Program-made: the position numbers and the translations under genes
NCBI GenBank assembly: GCA_004356015.1
Contig: SMYD01000008.1
Span: 1-51,728, forward strand
Direction of reading: 5' to 3'
Origin: Acidobacteriota bacterium
GTDB lineage: Bacteria; Acidobacteriota; Polarisedimenticolia; SMYD01
Length of the DNA: 51,728 nucleotides
Notes under the pieces: model-generated
Told to the model about the DNA's origin: nothing
What the model saw: only the letters and a program-made list of their open reading frames with translations
Database searches by the model: none
In this document: piece by piece, positions 877-14,581 of the stretch
Position numbering within the stretch: position 1 is the stretch's first letter
Layout: each line of letters starts with the position of its first letter

Positions 877-3501
877 TCAGAACTCGACCGGTTCGAGGCC
901 GGGCAGGTAAAGGCTGTTGAAGAGAAGCTTGAACGTTCTCGTGGTCTGGGCGCGGTGCTGGACGCGGAAGCCCAGGAGGACCACGCGCCCGGCGCCGGCT
1001 CTCAGGTCCACCACTGCGGCCCGCCGGGCCAGCAGTTTGGCCCCGGACAGGTATCCGCTGATCAGGATGTCTCGCCGGTCATCGGGGTAGGCAGCCACCA
1101 CGCGGCGCGCGAAGCGGGCATCGGGCGGATAGGTGCGAAACGCCGGCGAGGAGGCGAAATAAGCGGCCTCCTGCGGCTGCAGTCCCCAGGCCAGAAGATG
1201 ATCGGTATTGACTTCGATGCGCAGCATGGCACCCGGGCAGCGGAAGTGGGCGTCATCGACATCCTCGAGGACATTGGTGACGGGCAGCTCCAGGAGTTCG
1301 ATGAGGTAGTCGGCCGATGAATCCAGGGCGACCACCGTGCCGCCTTTCTCCAGGATCCAGTTGCGCAATTTCTCACCGCCTTCATCTCCCAGGCCGCCGG
1401 CATAGTCGGGTGGCAGCGGTGCAGTGCGGCGGCGGCGCGCAGGATCTGAAGGGCGGCCATCCCGCAGAATATCCTTCTCGATGTCCGGCAGGAGAATCAG
1501 GTCCACCTGATCGGCATACGATCCATCGCGCATGTCGGCGTTGCTCAGGTTGCGATAGGGGAACCCGTATTCCTCCAGAAGCCAGCGGGTCCAGCCCTCG
1601 TCCATGCTGGCCACCCATGGCTTGTAGAGGCCTATGGAGACCGGCTTGAGCCGCAGAGCCGCCCCGCCGGGGGCAGTGTCCAGGGAGCGTGCGGGGACAT
1701 GCAGTTCATCGACCAGAGCCTGTAACCGGCCGGCGGCGGGGCCGGCGGACGGCACATAGACATCTCCCGGAGCACCGTTTTCTTGCCTGTCGCGCAACCA
1801 GTAGACCGGATGCCCGGCTGCTAGAAGCCGGTTCATGAACGGGTAAATGGAATCGGCGGCATGGGAGATCCTGAGTCCGGCGGCACCGGTGTGCAGTTGG
1901 GCGCCGGGCCAGTCCGGTTCATCGAGGGATGTCGTCGCCACGGTCACCGGGGCGCCGGCGGGGTCGACCTTGACGCCCATGGAGAGAGGCAGCGACCAGG
2001 AGGTCACGTCATAAGGAGGAAGAATGGCACTGTCACGGCCGGCCCGGACTTCCGGATAGCGCTGGGGTTGCAGCATGGTGAGGAGGAAGGCGCGGTACGG
2101 CTGAGCCGCCGGAATGATGGTGGTGCCGGCGGGGTAGGACCGGTTTTCCACGGTGAAGTCCTTGCGCGCCCGCTGAATCTCGATGCCATGGCGCAGCAAC
2201 AATTCCACCAGGCGTGCGCTTGCCACCGGGTCGTGCTGGTCGGGGGGGATGAGGAAGGCGAACGGCGCCTCCTGGAGGCCCTTCTGCACCTGGCGGCGCC
2301 CCAGTTCATAGAAGTTTGTCAGCAGGCTCTCATGAAATCGGGAGCAACCTTCCAGCAAAGCCATGGTGGCGGTGAGTTCGTAGTCCACGATGTCCCGCAG
2401 GCGCCACCAGCCGCCACTCCATGGCGAGGGATAATTGGAACGCCGGCCGTAGTCGGGAAATCCCTTGCGGTTTCCCTCCAGTTCACCCTTCTCGATGTAG
2501 ACCGGAGAGGCGATGCGGACGCTGGCGACTTCGCTGAGCAGGCCGGTGACATTTTTCCACCAGGCGGTGTTGCGCGTGCCCCCTGGCCAGTAGCTGTCGA
2601 AGATCATGTCGTGTCCCACGCCGGTGCGGCCGTCTTCTTCCAGGCGCATGGACATGATGGTGCCCAGCAGATCCGCCTGGCGAAAGATCAGGGAGTCGAT
2701 CTCCGGGGCCAGGGGGTTGGTCTGGGGGGGCACGAACATGCGTGGTCCGGTCCGGCCCATCTGGTGTTCATCCAGAAAGACCTGTGGAAACCACCGGTGG
2801 TAGAGAACCTGGTTGACCACCCGGGTCTCGGCCTGGGTGAGCATGTAGAAGTCCCGATTGTTGTCGTGACCGACGTAAGGGTGGTAGAGCCAGGGCAGGG
2901 GGCCGCCTTCGTACTCAGTGCCGCGGTAACGCTCATACCACCGGAGCACAATCTCCTGGCCATCGGGATTGATGGAGGGCATGATCAGAAGAATCACATC
3001 GTCGAGCCAGCCCTCGATCTTCGCGTCATCGGTGGTGGCCAGGTTGTGGACCAGTTCCATGAACATCTGGGTCGAACCGACCTCGGTCGCGTGAATGGTG
3101 CCGGTGATCAACACCAGCACTTTTCCCTGGCGGACCAGAGCGGCGGCCTTTTCCGGGTCGAGATCGGCCGGATGGGCCAGACGGCGGGCGATCTCCCGGT
3201 AACGGTCCAGATGGCGAATGTTGTCGGCTGACGAGACAGCCACCACCACCATTTCCCGGCCCTGGCTGGACAGGCCGGCCGTCTCCACGCTGACCCGGGG
3301 CGAGGTGGCTGCAACTTGGCGCAGGTAGGCGACCACGGTGTCATAGGGTGCCAGGTGGCCATCGCTGCCCACCGCGAACCCCAGGACCTCAGCAGGCGCG
3401 GGAGGCACAGCCTTCCCGGCGGCCGGCACTGGGGAAGGAAAAAGTGCCAGCAGCATGATCAGGGCAGGAAGAGGACTGAGCAGCCGCATCGGTGCAGGCA
3501 C
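877..3501 (-). CDS. Secreted M14-family zinc carboxypeptidase with C-terminal class-I glutamine-amidotransferase-like domain
   Basis: Signal peptide; HATE (HxxE), NPDG, NNRD and DEH zinc/substrate motifs; C-terminal SMDEGWTRWLLE...GGTVVA domain. Confidence 0.9.
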   Translation of the reverse strand: MPAPMRLLSPLPALIMLLALFPSPVPAAGKAVPPAPAEVLGFAVGSDGHLAPYDTVVAYLRQVAATSPRVSVETAGLSSQGREMVVVAVSSADNIRHLDRYREIARRLAHPADLDPEKAAALVRQGKVLVLITGTIHATEVGSTQMFMELVHNLATTDDAKIEGWLDDVILLIMPSINPDGQEIVLRWYERYRGTEYEGGPLPWLYHPYVGHDNNRDFYMLTQAETRVVNQVLYHRWFPQVFLDEHQMGRTGPRMFVPPQTNPLAPEIDSLIFRQADLLGTIMSMRLEEDGRTGVGHDMIFDSYWPGGTRNTAWWKNVTGLLSEVASVRIASPVYIEKGELEGNRKGFPDYGRRSNYPSPWSGGWWRLRDIVDYELTATMALLEGCSRFHESLLTNFYELGRRQVQKGLQEAPFAFLIPPDQHDPVASARLVELLLRHGIEIQRARKDFTVENRSYPAGTTIIPAAQPYRAFLLTMLQPQRYPEVRAGRDSAILPPYDVTSWSLPLSMGVKVDPAGAPVTVATTSLDEPDWPGAQLHTGAAGLRISHAADSIYPFMNRLLAAGHPVYWLRDRQENGAPGDVYVPSAGPAAGRLQALVDELHVPARSLDTAPGGAALRLKPVSIGLYKPWVASMDEGWTRWLLEEYGFPYRNLSNADMRDGSYADQVDLILLPDIEKDILRDGRPSDPARRRRTAPLPPDYAGGLGDEGGEKLRNWILEKGGTVVALDSSADYLIELLELPVTNVLEDVDDAHFRCPGAMLRIEVNTDHLLAWGLQPQEAAYFASSPAFRTYPPDARFARRVVAAYPDDRRDILISGYLSGAKLLARRAAVVDLRAGAGRVVLLGFRVQHRAQTTRTFKLLFNSLYLPGLEPVEF

Positions 3502-3644
3502 TCTAGCCCGGTGTGCGGGGTCTGTCCAAGAGCGGGGCCGGGGACAGGCCGGGGTCTATACTGTCCTGGCCGGGAGTGCCCATGGGCCAATGGGCCCCGC
3601 TGCTGGCCCCGGCCTCTGATTTGCATTACGTTCATTTGACTGCC

Positions 3645-6600
3645 ATGCGTCTCCCTGCCAGGTTCCTGCTGCTGGCCCTGCTTCCCATGGGGCCGGCCAT
3701 CTTCGCTGCGGCTCCTGCGGGGCCGCCGGTGAACGGCATGGGAGTTGTCCTTCCTGCCGACTGGCTGACCACCCCGCTGCAGGCGGACGAAGTGCCGCCC
3801 CTGCCCTGGTCCGGCCGCCCGGCCGGCGTGCCTCTTTACGTCCGTGTGACCATCACCAGCGCGGCTCTGGATCAGCCGGACGTCAGTGCCCGTCGGCTGG
3901 GGACTCTCCGGGATCAGGATCTGGTACCGGTGCTGCTGCTGGACTCACCCGGCGCCGGCCGGCCCATGAGCACAGCCCTGGGCTTTGATCTCGACGGGTG
4001 GTTGACCCGGGTGGATCGCCTCCTCCAGGTCATGGACCATGAACCGGTCCTGGTGCAGGTCATGGAGCGTCCCCTGCAGCACATGACGGCACCCCTCTAT
4101 GCCTTTGTGCTGAAGCGCATGGCGGTGATGGTGCGCGCCGTGGCCCCTGGCTCACACATTGCCAGCGGCACTCTTGCGGATGTCAGCGAGGCGCGGGAAC
4201 TGGCCGTGTGGGGGGTGGAACCGTACCTGGATGCTGTGGTCATGGACAGGGCGGCTGCAGGTGCCATGGATCTGGCAGGGGTTCGCATGGCCCTGCCGGC
4301 GACGGAGATATGGCTGTCCGGTGCCGGTGCCGGCGGAGGCTCCTATCTGCGGGAGGCGGGCCTGGCGTTCAGCCGCGCGGTTTCCCTGGTCTTTGCCGCG
4401 CCTGACAGCGGACTGTCACCGGAGATGCTGGCTGCCTGGCAGCGGTTGCTGGGGCCGGAAACCATCGTGGTCCCGCCGGCATTCCGTCGGGTGGAGGTTC
4501 GTGCCGGGGAGCAGGTCCTGCCGCCTGAAGATTTTCTCGAACTGGAAGAGCCCGATGGCAGGCGCTATCTGGTGGCTTTCGCGGCCCCCGCCGGCCTGCC
4601 TCTGGAGATGACCATCCATGGACCACGGGTCAGCGTGGCGTGGATTCTGGATCCCGTCACCGGTACGGAAACCATGGGCGCCGCCGCCGACTGGCTCGTG
4701 GCCGGCGGTGACCCGAGCAGCCACGCGGTGAGCCAGGTGACCCTCCATGTGCCGGGGTTGCCTTTGGTCGTGCGCCTGGGGCGGGTGGGTGGTGCGGCGC
4801 CGCGGCTGGCCGAGTTGGAGAAAGTCGTGGCGGGCCGGAGCCTGACGGTGGAGGAGATCCTGGCTCGCCACCGGGAGGTCCAGGCAGGCCAGGATCGGCG
4901 CCTGCATACCACTGAAGCCGACGTGCGTATCGATTTCCATTTCAGTGTCGCCAATCTCAGCCAGAGGTTCGATGTCGCCACTCTCAACCGCTATTTCCAT
5001 GACAGCACCCGCACGGTGTACGAGGAGCGCGCCCTCTATCTCAACGGCGCCCTGTGGCGCGGCAAGCGCCCTCCGGACCTGCCGTTTGTCCTTCCCGAGC
5101 GTGTGACCGAGGTGCCACTGGACCTGAATCTCGACCTCCGTTACGTCTACGAGCTGGAGAAGACCGCAGATCTGGACGGCCGGCAGGTCTACGTGGTCTC
5201 CTTCGCCCCGGTAGAAGGCAGTGAGGCCCCCTATCGCGGGCGCGTCTGGATCGACACCCAATCGTTTGTCAAGCGCCGTCAGGAGGTGGTGGAACTGCAC
5301 CCCAAGCTCCCGGTCATCAGCAATCGCCTCCTGCAGGAGTTCACGCCGGTGACCCAGGGCGGGCGAACCTGGTGGCTGGTGACGCGCCTGACCGGGCAGA
5401 TGATCTTCACGGCTCTCGGGCGCAACGTGGTCCTGGAACGAGAGCTGATCTACAGCGACTACCAGATCAACCTGCCTGCCTTCGAGGATCGCCTGGATGA
5501 GTCGTACGCCTCCGACCGGCCCCTGTTGGAAGAAACGGAGGACGGATTCCAGCGCCTGGGGGTGGTCGCCGATGGCCGGGGCGGTTTCACGCGGCAGGTC
5601 TCGGATCAGGGTCGCACCGGTGTCAGTCGCCTCGTGGTGGGGGTCTGGTCCATCGGGGACGATCTCGGCCTGAAGGTGCCGTTTGCGGGTGTGAACTATT
5701 TCAACTTCGACTGGCGGGGAACGGGCAACCAGGTGGATGTGATCTGGGCCGGCCCTTTTCTCAATGTGTTCTGGTCGGATCCCAGCTTTGGCGGGGGCAA
5801 GGCCATCCTGGCACTGCAAGGGCGCATCAACCCGCTTTATTCAGGCAACGAGCGGCTGGATGCAGGCGATGACATCGACGGCGAGATCAAGGCGGAGCGC
5901 CTCGAAGAGAGTTCCCAGCGCTTCCAGATCATTCTGGGCCGTCCGCTGGGCGTCCATCACAAGTTCGAGTTTCAGCTGGATCTGGATCACCTCCGCTTCC
6001 GCAGCGAGGATGAGACGGCGGCGGACTTCGTCGTGCCCTCGGACACCTGGCAGGAACTCCTCACCGGGCGCTGGATCTATGCCCGTGCCGGCTGGCGGCT
6101 GGAGGGCTCGCTCCAGGGCGGTTCCCGCAACGACTGGACCTTCTGGGGCGACCCCGACGGGTCGGATTTCAGTGATGGCGATGAGCAGTTCGCGCGCTCG
6201 GCGATGGAATTCAGCAAGGCGTTCTATTCCGCCGGCCGCAACAAGTTCGGCTTCGGCCTGGCCATGTATCACGGCAACGGTCTGGACCGGTTCTCCAAGT
6301 TCGAACTGGGGCGCTCCGGTGTGGCGCGTGTGCCGGGTTACAGCCGCGACGGCATCCGTTTCCGCACCGGCGGAGTGCTGGGACTCAGCGGGGCTTTCGC
6401 CCTGGGCAGCAAGGCTCGGATGGACCTGAGCCTCACCCACGCCCGTTTCCGCGATGAGGAGGACCTGGGCCCCCATGTGGAGCATGCCACCGGGGCTAGC
6501 GTGGCACTCAACTTCTCCGGGCCGTTCAACGCGTTCATGCGGGCGCGCGTGGGCTTCGCCCTGAGCAGTTCCGTCGACGATGCCGACGGCGGCGGCTCGC

Positions 6601-6686
6601 TGCGGGTGACCTACTTCCGCACCTTCCGGCGCTGGTTCTGGCAACGCGCCTCTGAGAAGAAACACAAAAACGGCCCCGGGTCCTGA
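3645..6686 (+). CDS. Large exported/outer-membrane hypothetical protein (N-terminal alpha/beta domain, central LolA/RseB-like domain, C-terminal beta-barrel-like region)
   Basis: ATG 3645 starts a signal peptide (MRLPARFLLLALLP...). The central YVVSFAP...YRGRVWIDTQSF resembles LolA/RseB-fold proteins. The C-terminal third is alternating amphipathic beta-strands. Confidence 0.7.
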   Translation: MRLPARFLLLALLPMGPAIFAAAPAGPPVNGMGVVLPADWLTTPLQADEVPPLPWSGRPAGVPLYVRVTITSAALDQPDVSARRLGTLRDQDLVPVLLLDSPGAGRPMSTALGFDLDGWLTRVDRLLQVMDHEPVLVQVMERPLQHMTAPLYAFVLKRMAVMVRAVAPGSHIASGTLADVSEARELAVWGVEPYLDAVVMDRAAAGAMDLAGVRMALPATEIWLSGAGAGGGSYLREAGLAFSRAVSLVFAAPDSGLSPEMLAAWQRLLGPETIVVPPAFRRVEVRAGEQVLPPEDFLELEEPDGRRYLVAFAAPAGLPLEMTIHGPRVSVAWILDPVTGTETMGAAADWLVAGGDPSSHAVSQVTLHVPGLPLVVRLGRVGGAAPRLAELEKVVAGRSLTVEEILARHREVQAGQDRRLHTTEADVRIDFHFSVANLSQRFDVATLNRYFHDSTRTVYEERALYLNGALWRGKRPPDLPFVLPERVTEVPLDLNLDLRYVYELEKTADLDGRQVYVVSFAPVEGSEAPYRGRVWIDTQSFVKRRQEVVELHPKLPVISNRLLQEFTPVTQGGRTWWLVTRLTGQMIFTALGRNVVLERELIYSDYQINLPAFEDRLDESYASDRPLLEETEDGFQRLGVVADGRGGFTRQVSDQGRTGVSRLVVGVWSIGDDLGLKVPFAGVNYFNFDWRGTGNQVDVIWAGPFLNVFWSDPSFGGGKAILALQGRINPLYSGNERLDAGDDIDGEIKAERLEESSQRFQIILGRPLGVHHKFEFQLDLDHLRFRSEDETAADFVVPSDTWQELLTGRWIYARAGWRLEGSLQGGSRNDWTFWGDPDGSDFSDGDEQFARSAMEFSKAFYSAGRNKFGFGLAMYHGNGLDRFSKFELGRSGVARVPGYSRDGIRFRTGGVLGLSGAFALGSKARMDLSLTHARFRDEEDLGPHVEHATGASVALNFSGPFNAFMRARVGFALSSSVDDADGGGSLRVTYFRTFRRWFWQRASEKKHKNGPGS

Positions 6687-6729: not shown

Positions 6730-8720
<1,991 letters not shown>

Positions 8721-8773
8721 CGTGAACCTCCTAAGTTGTTCTGGTTAATGGGTTTGTAGGGGTCGGAAACCCG

Positions 8774-8800
8774 TTAGCACTCACCTTTAACGAGTGCTAG
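8774..8800. promoter_or_regulatory. CIRCE element (HrcA operator)
   Basis: TTAGCACTC-acctttaac-GAGTGCTAG is one mismatch from TTAGCACTC-N9-GAGTGCTAA, upstream of groES. Confidence 0.95.
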
Positions 8801-8827
8801 CATAACATTGGGTTCTGAACCTGTCAA
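8799..8827 (-). promoter_or_regulatory. Sigma70-type promoter of groESL
   Basis: Minus strand TTGACA (8827-8822), 17-nt spacer, TGn-extended TATGCT (8804-8799), overlapping the edge of CIRCE. Confidence 0.85.
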
Positions 8828-8940
8828 CTTTTTCTGTCGCGGAATTCTACTTTTTTTCCCGCCCGGGGGCGGGCCTCTCGGAAGGAACGGAATGCGCGGT
8901 GACCTTGCCGCGGTTTTCATAGTTGGCGGTGTCGCGCCTG

Positions 8941-8968
8941 TTGTCGCCGCCGGCGCGAGACGTATATT
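8941..8968 (+). promoter_or_regulatory. Candidate sigma70-type promoter of the AAA+ operon
   Basis: TTGTCG-16 nt-TATATT, followed by a GAGGAG RBS (8977-8982) and an in-frame TTG at 8990. Confidence 0.4.
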
Positions 8969-8989
8969 CCTGTGCAGAGGAGCATTCCA

Positions 8990-10891
8990 TTGGCCGAGAA
9001 TGAAGTCAGCCGAGTCGAGTCGGTTTCACGGGAGGATCTGGAATCCCGGCTGCGGGAGATTGCCCGGCGCCATCATCCCGAGGAGATCCTGGATCGCCTG
9101 GAACTGACCCACCTGGTGCAGGTTCTGACCAATGATGCTCTCCTGGTGGGTGACCTCTACACCCGCACCGCTCTGGGGCAGATCCTGGATCGGGAGCTTC
9201 CATCGCTGCCGGTGGCGTTGCGTGCCCTGGCCCAACGGGCCGATCGCAAGGGTCCGGAGGACACCAGCCTCCTGATGGAAGTTCGCCGTCTGCCCGAAGA
9301 CCTCAAGGCCGTGGGCGATAAATGCCTGCTGGACGTGGGACTGGTCGGCCAGCGCGAGTTTCGGGGCATTTCCCTCATCGACCTTGGACGGCGCTCCTAC
9401 GAAGTCGCTTCCCGCATCATGGAACGCCTGGCCGCCGACCCCACCCTCAGCCGGTTCTTCAAGGAAAACCAGCTTGCGGCGCTGCCCATCGAGGAGGAAG
9501 TCCTGTTCCTGCAGCAGTGTTCGCGGCGTTTTGCCCTTTATGCCGATCTTCTCCACTGGCTGCGTGCCGATAACCCGGAAAGCCGTGAGGAGAGGGCTCT
9601 GGCTGGAACTCAGCCGGCGACGCTCTCGCCCGGTCCCGGGGCGGGGGCCATTGCGGCCATCACCGCTGTCCCCATGATCGAAGAAGCCGTGGTCGAGGGG
9701 GAGGATGGCAGTCCTGATCCCTCTCCTTCCGCGAGGCCCCAGCCGGCCGGTGATCGGGTGCAGCTTCCCCGGGAGGAATTGCTGGCGGCCTACGAGCGCA
9801 TCCTGCTCTTCTCGGCCCTGGATATACCGGCCCTGGGTGAGCGGCTGGGCGAGACCGTGGTGGGCCAGAGCGGTGCCATCCAGGCGCTCTGCGATGAGTT
9901 CACCCTCTATGCCACCGGGACCCACAACTTGAACAGGCCCCCGTCCTATCTCTTCGTGGGGCCCACCGGGGTGGGCAAGAACTACCTGGTGGAGACGCTC
10001 CTGGAAATCCTGGAGCAGGGCTGGGGCCTGGAGATTCCCCTGCTCATCCTGGAGGGACCCAATTACACCTACCCGGCAGACATCAACGAGTTGCGCGGGG
10101 CCACCCGGGGTTTCATCCGCAGCGACGAGGACGGGGTGCTGACCGAGTTCCACAAGAAGTCTGCGACCTCGCCCCTGTCCGTCATCCTCATCGACGAGGT
10201 GGAGAAAGCCCACCCTCAGCTCAGGCGCTTCTTCCTCTCCATCATGGATCGAGGCACAGTGACCGATAACCGGGGCAAGGTGCTCAGCTTTGCCAATTCC
10301 ATGCTGGTGTTCACCTCCAATATCGGTTATTCGGATCTGAGGCGTCAGGCAGCACCCATCGGCTATGGAGATCAGGCATCCAAGGACCGACGGGACGCCC
10401 AGGACGTGCGCCGGTCCCTGCGCCGTGCCCTGTCCCCTGAGTTCATCAACCGGTTGCGCCCCATCCATTTCGATCACCTGGGGCCTGAATCTCTCGAACG
10501 GATATTCGACCTCGAACTGGAACGGATTGCCCGCCGCTTCCGGGATATCCACGACCTGGAGGTCGAGGTGACTCCTGCGGCGCGGACCGAACTCCTGCGC
10601 CGGGGCACCAGCCATGACCATGGCGCCAGGCATCTGCGGGCGCGGATGGAAACGCTCATCAACGTGGAGATCAGCCGCCGGATCAAATCCGATGAGCGGC
10701 GCCGGGGCTCTGGGCATAATCGCACCCTGAAGTACCTGCGCGCGCTGAAGACAGGGGAGCGGCCGTTTGATCTGGATGAAGTCCGCGCCCGGGTCATGAA
10801 GGTCGCGCGGGCACGGGTCTCGTACCATCGCTTCCGGGTGGACCTGAAGGACGACAACTTCGTGTACGAGGGCGTCAAGGAGCCGTCGTGA
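8990..10891 (+). CDS. Single-AAA-domain ClpA/B/C-D2-like ATPase with uncharacterised N-terminal helical domain
   Basis: Walker A GPTGVGKN, pore-loop position GATRGFI, Walker B ILIDEVEKAHP, sensor-1 TSN, PEFINRL, sensor-2 GARHLR. The start is placed at TTG 8990 from the RBS; the ORF track uses GTG 8972. Confidence 0.9.
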   Translation: MAENEVSRVESVSREDLESRLREIARRHHPEEILDRLELTHLVQVLTNDALLVGDLYTRTALGQILDRELPSLPVALRALAQRADRKGPEDTSLLMEVRRLPEDLKAVGDKCLLDVGLVGQREFRGISLIDLGRRSYEVASRIMERLAADPTLSRFFKENQLAALPIEEEVLFLQQCSRRFALYADLLHWLRADNPESREERALAGTQPATLSPGPGAGAIAAITAVPMIEEAVVEGEDGSPDPSPSARPQPAGDRVQLPREELLAAYERILLFSALDIPALGERLGETVVGQSGAIQALCDEFTLYATGTHNLNRPPSYLFVGPTGVGKNYLVETLLEILEQGWGLEIPLLILEGPNYTYPADINELRGATRGFIRSDEDGVLTEFHKKSATSPLSVILIDEVEKAHPQLRRFFLSIMDRGTVTDNRGKVLSFANSMLVFTSNIGYSDLRRQAAPIGYGDQASKDRRDAQDVRRSLRRALSPEFINRLRPIHFDHLGPESLERIFDLELERIARRFRDIHDLEVEVTPAARTELLRRGTSHDHGARHLRARMETLINVEISRRIKSDERRRGSGHNRTLKYLRALKTGERPFDLDEVRARVMKVARARVSYHRFRVDLKDDNFVYEGVKEPS

Positions 10892-11586
10892 GCCTGCTTG
10901 CCACGACCCAGGGTCTGCTTGAACGAACCTACGCCACTGTGTCGGGAGTAGGTGACCTGGGGCGGTTTGTCATCGGGGATATGGGTTATCGCCGTCTCCT
11001 GCGCGACCACGATCCCATCCAGGTGGTGAATACCGGCGTCCAGGCGCATGTCTCCCATGCCGGCACGGGCGACACTCCACGTGTCCTGGTCCGGCAGTGG
11101 CACCAGGGCGCGGCCCTGTCCATTTATTTCCCCGATGCCCTCATTGCCCGCCTCGAATCACGTCCGCCCACGGCCGTTCTTGATGATGGCAACGTGGACG
11201 ACTTCGCCGATTTCGTGGAGGAGATTGACCACTTCCTGGTGCTCTACGACGGCATCTGCCGGGGTCGTGAAATGCACCTGCTGGCCCTGGAAACCCGTGC
11301 CAACATCAGCAAGGCCCTGGTGGTCTCCCATTTCCTGGGGAGGTTGTCCGGGCGCCGCCGGCTGGGTCCCGATCAGCGTCAGTGGGTGCGCTACCACCTC
11401 TTCAGCAAGAAGCGGTTCAACGACCCCGACCCCGTGGTGCGTCGCCGCTACAGAGATGCCCGGCGCTTCGCCCTGCGCCTTCTGGAGCGTCTGGAGGGGC
11501 TGTCCGCACGCCAGCGCATCCGGGAGTTGCGGCGCTGGAACAGTCTGCCCGCGCAGGAAAAGATGCGGGAACTGGCCGCGAACTGA
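10888..11586 (+). CDS. Hypothetical protein coupled to the AAA+ ATPase (EEIDH motif)
   Basis: GTGA start/stop overlap with the ATPase; 232 aa with typical codon usage. Confidence 0.8.
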   Translation: MSLLATTQGLLERTYATVSGVGDLGRFVIGDMGYRRLLRDHDPIQVVNTGVQAHVSHAGTGDTPRVLVRQWHQGAALSIYFPDALIARLESRPPTAVLDDGNVDDFADFVEEIDHFLVLYDGICRGREMHLLALETRANISKALVVSHFLGRLSGRRRLGPDQRQWVRYHLFSKKRFNDPDPVVRRRYRDARRFALRLLERLEGLSARQRIRELRRWNSLPAQEKMRELAAN

Positions 11587-11616
11587 CGCCCGGCGAGGGT
11601 TCTCTCCCGGCTTCCC

Positions 11617-13206
11617 TCAGCGGGGGAGAGCTGCAGCGGCGCCACCGGCCGGGTGATCCGCCAGCATGGCCAGCTCGCGAGCCTGGGGAAACAGGGTCAG
11701 GGCTTTTTGCACCTGGGCGTCATACTCGTTGCGGACGCGGTTGCTCCAGACCAGCCCGTAACGGGCCGAGAGGACTTCCGAGCGCACGAACATACTGATG
11801 TTGCGCCGGTCCACCTGAAGCTCCGACTCCTCGAAGGGAATCTCTTCATCCAGGAGGAGCTGGCGGAATTCCTCGAGCACCTGGTCGGTCATCTGGAAAT
11901 CTTCGGGGACCTCGGGGTGTCGTGAAAGGTAGGCCACCGCGAAGCGGAAGAAGGCCGAGGTACGGTACATGCGGGTGATGAAGGTGGACGGCTCCTCCAG
12001 CTTGACTTCGGTATCCGGGGCGATACCCCCACCGCCATAGACGGTGCGGCCACCATCCGTGAAGCGGCGTGTGCTCTGGTCGAATGAAGGTTCGTAATTC
12101 TCGTCGGTCCGGTAGGCGACGTAATCTTCCAGGTCGTCATAATCGCGCTGGATCAGACGCCCTGAAGGGGTGTAGTACTTGGCCGTGGTGAGGGCCAGGG
12201 CGTTGCTGTGGGAGAGGGGGTACACGGATTGGACCAGTCCCTTGCCCCAGGTGGTCTCACCGACGATGAGGCCCCTGTCGTGATCCTGGATGGCGCCGGC
12301 GACGATCTCGGAGGCAGAGGCCGAACCGCGGTTCACCAGCACCACCAAGGGCAGGTCCGGGTAGGAGGCATCTTCGTTGGCGTAATAGTCCTTGTTGGAC
12401 CCCTTGATGCGTCCCCTTGTATAGACCAGTTTCTTGCCACGCTCCAGGAAGGTGCCCGAGACGCTCACGGCCTGATCCAGAAGGCCGCCGGGATTGCCTC
12501 GCAGATCCAGGATCAGCCGCTTCATTCCCTGGCGATCCAGTTTTTCCAGAGCGGCGTGCAGTTCCTTGCTGGTGGTCTGGGTGAAGTTGCGAATCTTGAT
12601 ATAGCCGGTATCCGGTTCAATCATGTAAGGACTGACCACACTGTCGGTGGGGATGGTGTCCCGGGTCACCTCGAACTCGAGTTGCTCTGTAAAACCGGGC
12701 CGGGTCACGGTGATATTGACCGAGGTGCCCTTGGGGCCACGCAGGAGATCGACGGCTTCCGATGAAGTCATGCCATCGGTCGTGGTGCCGTTGATGCGTG
12801 CGATGATGTCGCCGGCGCGAATGCCCAGCCGCGCGGCCGGAGTCCCGTCGATGGGACTGATCACGGTCAGAGGCCGGTCACGCCCCAGTTTTTGAATGAC
12901 GATTCCGAGACCGGTGAATGAGCCGCGCTGTTCTTCCCGCATGGAGCGGAACGCCTTGAGGTTGAGATAATGGGAGTGGGGGTCAAGGGTGCGCAGCATG
13001 CCGTTGATAGCCCCCTCCACCAGTTGATCCGGTTTGGTCTCTTCATAGTAATTGTCCTGGACCACCTGCAGGATGGTGGCGAATGAGCGGACAAACGTCT
13101 CATTTTCCCATGTATCGGCTTGAACCCGGCTGGACAGAGCCACACCGGCCAGCGAGCCGGCAACCAGAAGAACGGCTGCCACGGAAGGAAGAGATTTGAG
13201 CCGCAT
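11617..13206 (-). CDS. S41 carboxyl-terminal processing protease (CtpA/Prc-like)
   Basis: Signal/TM segment, LDPHS, PDZ domain, DLRGNPGGLL, SASASEIVAGA, GKGLVQ; ATG 13206 with GGAGG RBS. Confidence 0.95.
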   Translation of the reverse strand: MRLKSLPSVAAVLLVAGSLAGVALSSRVQADTWENETFVRSFATILQVVQDNYYEETKPDQLVEGAINGMLRTLDPHSHYLNLKAFRSMREEQRGSFTGLGIVIQKLGRDRPLTVISPIDGTPAARLGIRAGDIIARINGTTTDGMTSSEAVDLLRGPKGTSVNITVTRPGFTEQLEFEVTRDTIPTDSVVSPYMIEPDTGYIKIRNFTQTTSKELHAALEKLDRQGMKRLILDLRGNPGGLLDQAVSVSGTFLERGKKLVYTRGRIKGSNKDYYANEDASYPDLPLVVLVNRGSASASEIVAGAIQDHDRGLIVGETTWGKGLVQSVYPLSHSNALALTTAKYYTPSGRLIQRDYDDLEDYVAYRTDENYEPSFDQSTRRFTDGGRTVYGGGGIAPDTEVKLEEPSTFITRMYRTSAFFRFAVAYLSRHPEVPEDFQMTDQVLEEFRQLLLDEEIPFEESELQVDRRNISMFVRSEVLSARYGLVWSNRVRNEYDAQVQKALTLFPQARELAMLADHPAGGAAAALPR

Positions 13207-13397
13207 GCACCCTCCATACCGATGGACAAGAGATGAAACAATCGATTTCGTCTCAAATATACCGTGGGTCCTCACGCGAGTAAAGGTCGAATCCTCTACC
13301 ATTACAGTAATTTACATGGGCAGGGCGTTCCTTGACCTCGCTGCCGGGGCTGGCCTACCCTAACCTCAGGGTTCTCGGCATCCCCATGGAGGAAAGC

Positions 13398-13751
13398 TTG
13401 TTCGGCCCCATCGGCGGCCCGGAAATGGTCGTCATCCTCATTGTCGCCCTTCTGATCTTCGGTCCGCGCCGGTTGCCGGATCTTGCCCGCAGCCTGGGCA
13501 AGGGACTCTCCGAGTTGCGGCGGACTTCCATGGATCTGCGTCGCACTCTGGAGCGGGAGATCCACCAGGAGGAGAGGGACAGGAAGCCGCCCGTCCTGCC
13601 CTCGGCAGAGTCGGTGGCCTCCCGGCCCGACGGCAGCGTGCCCCGTGAGGACCGGGCCGCCCCCCCGGAGCAGCCCGATCCGCCCGCCTCCGCTCCCGGC
13701 GACCAGGAGGGAGCGGCAGAGGACGAAGACTCCCCGCGCGAAGACCACTAG
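13398..13751 (+). CDS. Twin-arginine translocase TatA/TatB subunit
   Basis: FGPIGGPEMVVILIVALLIFGPRRLPDLARSLGKG; TTG start after GGAGG; upstream of tatC. Confidence 0.92.
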   Translation: MFGPIGGPEMVVILIVALLIFGPRRLPDLARSLGKGLSELRRTSMDLRRTLEREIHQEERDRKPPVLPSAESVASRPDGSVPREDRAAPPEQPDPPASAPGDQEGAAEDEDSPREDH

Positions 13752-13783
13752 CCCCCAGCCCTTCAGGAGAGACTTCCCGGCTC

Positions 13784-14581
13784 ATGGCCGCCTCCCGTCC
13801 CGATCCCAACAAAATGAACTTCCTGGAGCATCTTGATGAGCTCCGGAGACGCCTGTTCATCATGGTGGTGTCTGTGGCCGTTGGCTTTGGCGGCGGCTGG
13901 CTGGTGCATAACGAGGTTCTGCGCATCCTCATGGCCCCGGTGCAGGCCAATCTTCCGGAAGGTCTGAAACCTGTCTTCACCACCCTGACCGAACCGTTCA
14001 TGCTGGCCATGAAGGTGTCGTTCTTCGTGGGCCTCATCGCGGTCCTGCCGGTCCTGGTCCTGCAAATCTGGTTGTTCATCTCGCCGGGATTGTTCCCCAA
14101 CGAGCGGCGCTACGCCGTGCCGTTCATTTTTTTCGGGTCGGGGTTTTTCTTCCTCGGCTGCTGGTTCGGATACGCGGTGGTCTTTCCCTATGCCGCTCGC
14201 TTCCTCATCGGCTTCGCCGGCGACCAGTTCGCTCCCATGCTGACCATCTCACGCATCTTCGGGTTCGAGATGCGCCTGATTCTCTCCATGGGCGCGGTCT
14301 TCCAGATGCCGGTCTTCATCTTCCTTCTGGCACGCCTCGGTCTCGTGTCCGCCGGCTTCCTCTGGCGCAACATCAAGTACGCCGTTCTCATCATCTGCAT
14401 CCTGGCGGCGATTCTCACCCCGACACCCGATGCCGTCACCATGGCGCTTGTGGCCGGTCCCATGCTGGGGCTGTACGTGCTGGGGATTCTGGTGGCACTG
14501 GTCTTTGGACGCCGCTCCAAGCCGACCGAGGATGCGGAGAACTCCGATGATGATGAGGGGGAGGAGGATGGTTCCTCATGA
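13784..14581 (+). CDS. tatC: Twin-arginine translocase TatC
   Basis: FLEHLDELRRRL, QIWLFISPGL, FQMP, AAILTPTPD. Confidence 0.97.
   Translation: MAASRPDPNKMNFLEHLDELRRRLFIMVVSVAVGFGGGWLVHNEVLRILMAPVQANLPEGLKPVFTTLTEPFMLAMKVSFFVGLIAVLPVLVLQIWLFISPGLFPNERRYAVPFIFFGSGFFFLGCWFGYAVVFPYAARFLIGFAGDQFAPMLTISRIFGFEMRLILSMGAVFQMPVFIFLLARLGLVSAGFLWRNIKYAVLIICILAAILTPTPDAVTMALVAGPMLGLYVLGILVALVFGRRSKPTEDAENSDDDEGEEDGSS

Follow-up and report, generated by a model that had tools for sequence, protein, structure and literature searches.

A loop carrying a hydrophobic residue, a glycine and an aromatic residue is currently treated as a signature of ATPases that partner with the ClpP peptidase. The locus described here raises the question of what such a loop does in an ATPase family that keeps it without exception but has one ring, its own N-terminal domain, a torsin-type GKN Walker A motif, a pore loop whose F-I pair is flanked by Arg, and a neighbor that is always present. 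The locus lies on contig SMYD01000008.1 of an Acidobacteriota bacterium (assembly GCA_004356015.1), and the whole 51,728-nucleotide stretch analyzed, positions 1 to 51,728, is referred to as the window. The gene for the ATPase occupies 8990..10891 on the plus strand, and a preliminary description had read in it an IGY tripeptide at the ClpP-docking position, an atypical pore loop, and from these a ClpP-partnering unfoldase with altered substrate grip. We found the tripeptide to be certainly functional. Docking on ClpP is a plausible but unproven role for it; judged from sequence comparison and structural modeling, the loop may bind ClpP, and we hold this somewhat short of an even chance.

The reading frame is open from a GTG at 8972 to 10891 and spans 639 residues, from which all ATPase residue numbers here are counted. 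The probable start is the TTG at 8990, with GAGGAG at 8977-8982, 7 bases upstream; this gives a protein of 633 residues, the length also of a 100%-identical database protein (P0002). Pfam matched AAA_2 at residues 325-496 with 112 bits (cut-off 27), covering positions 5-164 of the 166 in the model and marking the module as D2-type, and ClpB_D2-small at residues 503-576 with 45.4 bits (cut-off 21.9). There was no Pfam match in residues 1-320, so that residues 325-496 are the single AAA+ region, and with no AAA match in residues 1-270 the protein does not have the two AAA+ modules of class I Hsp100 proteins. The NCBIfam models for ClpA, ClpV and ClpB matched through their D2 parts only (residues 285-579), and all equivalog cut-offs were missed (ClpA, 158.5 versus 993; ClpV, 156.8 versus 885; ClpB, 151.4 versus 1232; ClpX, 26.4 versus 359). 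The nearest solved relatives by phmmer were ClpC, Hsp104, ClpB, ClpC1 and ClpA, with Bacillus subtilis ClpC at an E value of 6.5e-40, and the top fold matches of the AlphaFold model were D2 chains of ClpA, ClpC and ClpB. Because the Pfam, NCBIfam, solved-relative and fold matches all point to D2 modules, the protein is, by sequence and predicted structure, a single-ring, D2-type Clp/Hsp100 ATPase with a helical N-terminal domain of its own. We found no published description of this family among the titles and abstracts listed in literature searches.

The tripeptide, I463-G464-Y465, is encoded by ATCGGCTAT at 10358..10366 and is followed by GD at 10367-10372, the letters and coordinates of the preliminary description being exact in the frame 8972..10891 on the plus strand. 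It sits at the loop tip of a helix-loop-helix (10328..10432; helix 453-459, loop, helix 468-487) that aligns with the P-loop region of ClpC. In a phmmer alignment of ATPase residues 293-571 with B. subtilis ClpC 507-781, IGY pairs with VGF ('nigysdlrrqaapigygdq' against 'nvgaselkrnk-yvgfnvq'), and its position, as had been proposed, is homologous to the VGF P-loop of ClpC and ClpE; ClpA and ClpX, too, bear at this place the loop that inserts into the hydrophobic pockets of ClpP. The loop is also predicted to be flexible: in the AlphaFold model the predicted local distance difference test score (pLDDT) falls below 50 at residues 460-465, between the two helices, and the only other short low-confidence segment within the AAA+ module is the pore loop, residues 378-384. 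In the same genome the counterparts are PMGFG in a ClpC-like protein and MGF in ClpX; ClpB, as anticipated, has no tripeptide at the aligned place. An earlier IGY in the frame, at 10322-10330, was rejected as a docking loop. It belongs to the sensor-1 motif TSNIGY (10313..10330, N450), lies between strand 443-449 and helix 453-459 in the model, and is part of a family motif TSN[LI]GYS (TSNLGYS in 94 and TSNIGYS in 21 of 121 proteins).

Those 121 aligned proteins are the query and 120 listed relatives, at 45-100% identity and 94-99% coverage. No orthologue in the set has lost the tripeptide: all 121 carry [IV]G[YF], as IGY (109), VGF (7), VGY (3) or IGF (2), with G464 invariant and the third residue Tyr in 112 and Phe in 9. 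A chance resemblance without function could be argued from the shortness of the motif and from the Tyr, which departs from the (L/I/V)-G-(F/L) consensus. This explanation is contradicted by the conservation of the tripeptide, which persists as [IVLM]GF in relatives at 23-31% identity, and the exact homology of its position with the ClpC loop also stands against it; we consider it scarcely credible. Tyr at the third position is not unique to this family: [LIV]GY also occurs in 7 representatives that have the two-ring architecture of Clp proteins, which we count in favor of docking on ClpP.

The pore-1 loop, RGFIRS at 10106..10123, has GFIR at the place of GYVG, as the preliminary description had it ('gatrgfirsdedgvlte' aligned with 'gsppgyvgydeggqlte' of B. 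subtilis ClpC). It reads RGFIRS in 116, RGFVRS in 4 and RGYIRS in 1 of the 121 proteins. The suggestion of an altered substrate grip stands insofar as GFIR differs from GYVG, and is tempered by the retention of an aromatic-hydrophobic pair, F-I, in the altered loop.

Docking on ClpP has well-described precedents. The (L/I/V)-G-(F/L) loops are reported to bind the hydrophobic pockets (H-pockets) of ClpP, and VGF and IGF loops are seen inside these pockets in published structures (PMC8745299, PMC13125188, PMC7112951). The genome encodes one ClpP, found at C18:11575-12159 with 282 bits by a PF00574 search of the whole assembly and lying within a tig-clpP-clpX cluster; a ClpP is thus present in the same genome as the ATPase. 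PF00574 matches fell on that contig only, in agreement with the earlier statement that the window (contig C174) has no clpP. Among related genomes, ClpP was detected in 21 of 21 at E≤0.001 and strongly in 20, the remaining genome being 80% complete. The part of the preliminary description that named a ClpP-partnering unfoldase is in part supported, by position, by conservation in all 121 orthologues, by a flexible loop and by a ClpP in the genome. That description did not mention the GKN Walker A motif or the adjacent gene for a possible partner.

If the loop does dock on ClpP, the ATPase hexamer would thread substrates through its pore, these being chosen by its own N-terminal domain, and six IGY loops would dock on the genome's single ClpP so that the unfolded chain could be handed over. 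Such docking would make the ATPase a third ClpP partner besides ClpX and the ClpC-like protein. A translationally coupled zincin-like protein of 232 residues, described below, may serve the ATPase as an adaptor or as an accessory peptidase, acting either on it or together with it.

Several observations weigh against docking on ClpP. The Tyr of IGY falls outside the (L/I/V)-G-(F/L) consensus as given in PMC8745299, and the conservative IGF-loop changes I268L and F270L are described in PMC7112951, citing Amor 2019, as badly damaging ClpX-ClpP binding; since even these changes do so, Tyr cannot be taken as automatically tolerated. The genome already has two proteins with MGF loops, ClpX and the ClpC-like protein. 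By analogy, the GKN Walker A motif of the ATPase is a further point, as GKN-type ATPases are reported to be slow. We kept 80 loci, with each species represented by a single genome. Close relatives of the ATPase are encoded in 70 of them (L013-L082), and no clpP was found in any of these 70, in flanks of up to 6 kb on each side. Instead, the zincin-like neighbor is adjacent in every testable locus and offers an alternative partner. Lastly, four loci from archaeal bins (L083-L086), of DPANN type or labeled Methanosarcinales and titled Nanobdellota, Methanosarcinales (twice) and Woesearchaeota, encode full-length relatives at 26-32% identity with GKN, GY[VI]G pore loops and the tripeptides MGF, IGF, VGF and MGF, and PF00574 detected no true ClpP in these bins, which are of 0.9-1.5 Mb and come without completeness estimates. 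Two of the bins gave no PF00574 match and two a weak one, and the one weak match that was checked was an S49 peptidase. The argument from the absence of ClpP extends to these four bins only, because a survey of 201 genomes from the class of L084 recovered its protein in 1, the genome of L084 itself. The copy at L083 has two in-frame stops.

The neighbor of the ATPase gene is an alternative target for the loop. Its gene, at 10888..11586 on the plus strand, encodes 232 residues and begins with a GTG that overlaps the ATPase stop codon (GTGA). In 65 of the 65 testable loci among the 70, a locus being testable where the contig extends far enough, the ATPase gene is immediately followed by a homologue in the same orientation, and the matched parts are separated by a median of 30 bases. 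We identified 350 relatives of this partner, all unnamed; it belongs to no Pfam family, its profile returned only chance-level rows from Pfam and PDB sequences, and in the Atlas it falls in unnamed clusters only. The structural model is confident (pLDDT 89.7, predicted template modeling score 0.88). Foldseek found nothing for this model in the PDB at E≤0.001, and an exhaustive VIA-align search listed 50 rows, 40 of which are zinc metallopeptidases by title. The best match was M1 aminopeptidase F3 (Z 10.7, root mean square deviation 4.2, 174 aligned) and thermolysin scored Z 7.9, values to be read with the proviso that Z below about 8-13 may mean a common arrangement only. On this basis the partner has a predicted zincin-like fold.

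Helix 103-125 of the partner bears E111-E112-I-D114-H115 (EExxH, 11218..11232), and on the next helix, 20 residues past H115, is E135 (11290..11292); E111, E112, D114, H115 and E135 are all invariant. A strict HExxH is absent, and the motif reads as HExxH with its first His replaced by Glu and with a Glu ligand 20 residues on. The same 20-residue spacing to the third ligand occurs in thermolysin.

The IGY loops might then dock on this co-encoded protein, forming a two-component ATP-dependent metalloprotease with motor and peptidase on separate chains. The constant adjacency with the GTGA overlap, the confident model with its many metallopeptidase matches, and the invariant acidic residues and His all speak for this, as does the finding that the changes from Phe to Tyr and from GYVG to GFIR fall in the branch that has the partner. 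Relatives in archaeal bins where neither ClpP nor a nearby partner was found are likewise counted on this side. Against it, the partner matches no Pfam family or solved structure by sequence and none by Foldseek, its VIA-align Z values are in the range that may reflect a common arrangement, the canonical HExxH is not matched, and nothing shows a partner ring or pockets for the loop. Furthermore, distant relatives have the loop without the partner, and the loop is therefore older than the partner. The partner profile had no match in L083-L088, and in hhalign comparisons the downstream open reading frames reached probabilities of 0.2 (L083) and 0.3 (L084) against the partner; the genes beside the archaeal relatives have nothing in common with one another (no family, DUF6612, radical SAM). 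Taking both sides together, we regard docking on the partner as unlikely. A still broader proposal is that the [IV]G[YF] loops dock the motor on an assembly of the EExxH zincin-like protein, so that an ATP-dependent metalloprotease of two components, encoded next to groESL, would constitute a class of its own. In the wider GKN family, including the members from archaeal bins in which no ClpP was found, the [IVLM]GF loop would then generally serve to dock partners that are not ClpP. This we think improbable as a whole.

The wider family bears on each of these explanations. Distant full-length relatives at 23-31% identity, drawn from a search of 1.84 billion representatives, resemble the ATPase in their N-domain motif, in GKN and in the insertion within the small domain. 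Their loop is [IVLM]GF and their pore loop GY[VI][GNS], from which it follows that the acidobacterial branch altered Phe to Tyr, in most members, and GYVG to GFIR; GFIR is specific to this branch. In a tree of 131 D2 modules, built by a quick method and with many weak forks, the GKN proteins formed one clade with a Shimodaira-Hasegawa-like approximate likelihood ratio test (SH-aLRT) value of 97. A tripeptide is present in 27 of 27 rows of this clade; over the remaining 104 rows of the tree, its presence changes about 20 times. Being kept throughout this clade and lost often elsewhere, the tripeptide is indicated to have a docking role.

This retention weighs against a further alternative, namely that the ATPase works on its own within the heat-shock network, as a chaperone or remodeling motor of the kind of ClpB, ClpL or Skd3, and that the loop makes some other contact (ring-ring stacking, another partner or regulation). 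That the genome's own ClpB lacks the tripeptide is a second point against it. A stand-alone motor would nevertheless agree with the archaeal relatives that keep the loop in bins where ClpP was not found, with the existence of single-ring D2-type chaperones such as Skd3/CLPB, and with the Walker A motif, which is GKN as in torsin, a weak and regulated ATPase. In the ATPase this motif is GPTGVGKN (9959..9982), with Asn where a Mg-binding Thr or Ser normally follows the Lys; it is invariant in all 121 family proteins, GKN recurs in the distant relatives, and canonical GK[TS] is not matched. The Walker A of torsinA is described as GxxxxGKN and torsin as having no arginine finger in PMC5628414, and the legend to Fig. 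S8 of bioRxiv 10.1101/2022.06.23.497301 reports the GKN proteins torsinA and DnaC to be very weak ATPases.

The genomic position is the other evidence for a stand-alone motor. The ATPase gene is divergent from groES (Cpn10; 8433-8720, minus strand) and groEL (6730-8382, minus strand), and 61 of 62 testable loci have groES upstream in this divergent arrangement, L028 being the one that lacks it. The shared spacer holds a CIRCE (controlling inverted repeat of chaperone expression) element at 8774..8800, TTAGCACTC-N9-GAGTGCTAG, with 1 mismatch to the consensus. For an ATPase that docks on ClpP, too, this place next to a CIRCE-controlled groESL suggests a role in protein quality control. The single CIRCE in the spacer is, however, on the groES side, directly behind a strong groES promoter, TTGACA-17-TATGCT (TGnTATGCT) at 8827-8799 on the minus strand, and an alignment with four close relatives shows both elements to be conserved. 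Just upstream of the ATPase gene is a separate promoter-like site, TTGTCG-16-TATATT at 8941..8968 on the plus strand, whose GTATATT box resembling a -10 element recurs in all 5 of the relatives aligned. Because the CIRCE is on the groES side and the ATPase gene has a conserved box of its own, shared heat-shock control of the ATPase and groESL is not established, and we did not adopt it. With these points on either side, a stand-alone motor seems to us a possibility on the doubtful side.

Returning to docking on ClpP, the catalytic residues of the ATPase are intact apart from the departure in its Walker A. Walker B, ILIDEVE at 10184..10204, has D408 and E409 intact, PEFINRL at 10436..10456 supplies the invariant arginine finger R494, and the sensor-2 GAR at 10622..10630 (R553) is found in 121 of 121 family proteins; together with sensor-1 N450, all of these elements are present and conserved in the family. 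The family-specific helical N-terminal domain (8990..9571), with a conserved GDKC/LFD motif, matches no Pfam family and no named Atlas cluster (best score 0.86, no more than a lead). It is followed by a low-complexity linker to about residue 265 that is modeled as disordered (pLDDT <50 at 202-262). The end of the small domain, also family-specific (10709..10888), has two extra helices (582-593 and 601-612) before a last beta-hairpin, for which the C-terminal strands of ClpB and of the ClpC-like protein from this genome are the aligned counterparts.

The records of the 70 close-relative loci are nearly all titled Acidobacteriota or Polarisedimenticolia. The N-domain was found in 25 of 301 sampled Acidobacteriota genomes. 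Besides the genome of the window itself, these are 22 from its class and 2 from a single other family. This tally and that of ClpP in relatives include one unpublished genome (G020). DNA near-identical to 8400-11700 occurs in marine-sediment, marine and subsurface metagenomes from nine coded studies, and the organism is therefore widespread in such habitats. Among public runs, no RNA run on record had near-identical DNA to this segment. Two libraries labeled 'metatranscriptomic WGA', whose RNA origin is no more than a guess, contain short contigs that match the ATPase and partner genes with full identity; one such contig spans 10750-11459 across the gene junction, which is no proof of transcription.

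Beyond the partner gene, 11617-14581 holds a minus-strand gene for a C-terminal processing peptidase of family S41 with a PDZ domain, and then tatA and tatC, an order that recurs in many related loci. Upstream of groEL, 880-6683 contains a minus-strand gene for an 874-residue protein that includes an M14 carboxypeptidase domain, as well as a 1057-residue open reading frame that matches no Pfam family.

What the loop binds would matter in different ways. Were it to dock on ClpP, the window's class of Acidobacteriota would have a third, specialized Clp protease, one with a metallopeptidase-like accessory. Were it to dock on the neighbor or on something else, the loop would not be specific for ClpP, and a new kind of ATP-dependent protease would be at hand. 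The points set out above leave the ClpP-partnering part of the preliminary description with its position and conservation borne out, and with the archaeal bins and the rival neighbor standing against it.

Compared with known systems, the ATPase is closest to the D2 modules of ClpC, ClpE and ClpA, its best matches in sequence and fold. In both, AAA_2 is followed by a D2-small domain, a helix-loop-helix past sensor-1 carries the hydrophobic-Gly-aromatic tripeptide, and the arginine finger (PEFxNR) and sensor-2 (GAR) are shared. Unlike these two-ring proteins it has one AAA+ ring, without a Clp_N or middle domain, and carries an N-terminal domain and extra small-domain helices of its own; it also has Tyr for Phe or Leu, GFIR for GYVG and GKN for GKT. 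With ClpX, a single-ring ClpP partner, it shares one AAA+ ring and an IGF-type loop, but there is no family-level kinship, the zinc-binding N-domain is missing and the module is D2-type. A D2-type module is likewise common to ClpB and Skd3/CLPB, disaggregases that work without ClpP, and Skd3, which is among the PDB matches of the ATPase, resembles it in having a single ring behind an unrelated N-terminal domain; the genome's ClpB, in contrast to the ATPase family, is without the tripeptide.

The combination of an AAA+ unfoldase with a zincin-type fold is known from FtsH, an AAA+ module fused to an M41 zincin peptidase. Here the two would be separate proteins, the ATPase is Clp-type rather than classic-AAA, the partner has EExxH in place of HExxH, and no sign of a membrane anchor for the partner appears in the evidence seen. 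The torsin family, AAA+ proteins of the eukaryotic endoplasmic reticulum, likewise has a GKN Walker A in a Clp-D2-like module. Torsins, however, lack the arginine finger, whereas the ATPase has an invariant R494 and the Walker B Glu, and so does not show the torsin-like pairing of GKN with arginine-finger loss. As a bacterial GKN ATPase with an arginine finger, the family could clarify the role of the Asn in the torsin Walker A. The ATPase family is a previously undescribed variant within Clp/Hsp100, in uncultured sediment Acidobacteriota.

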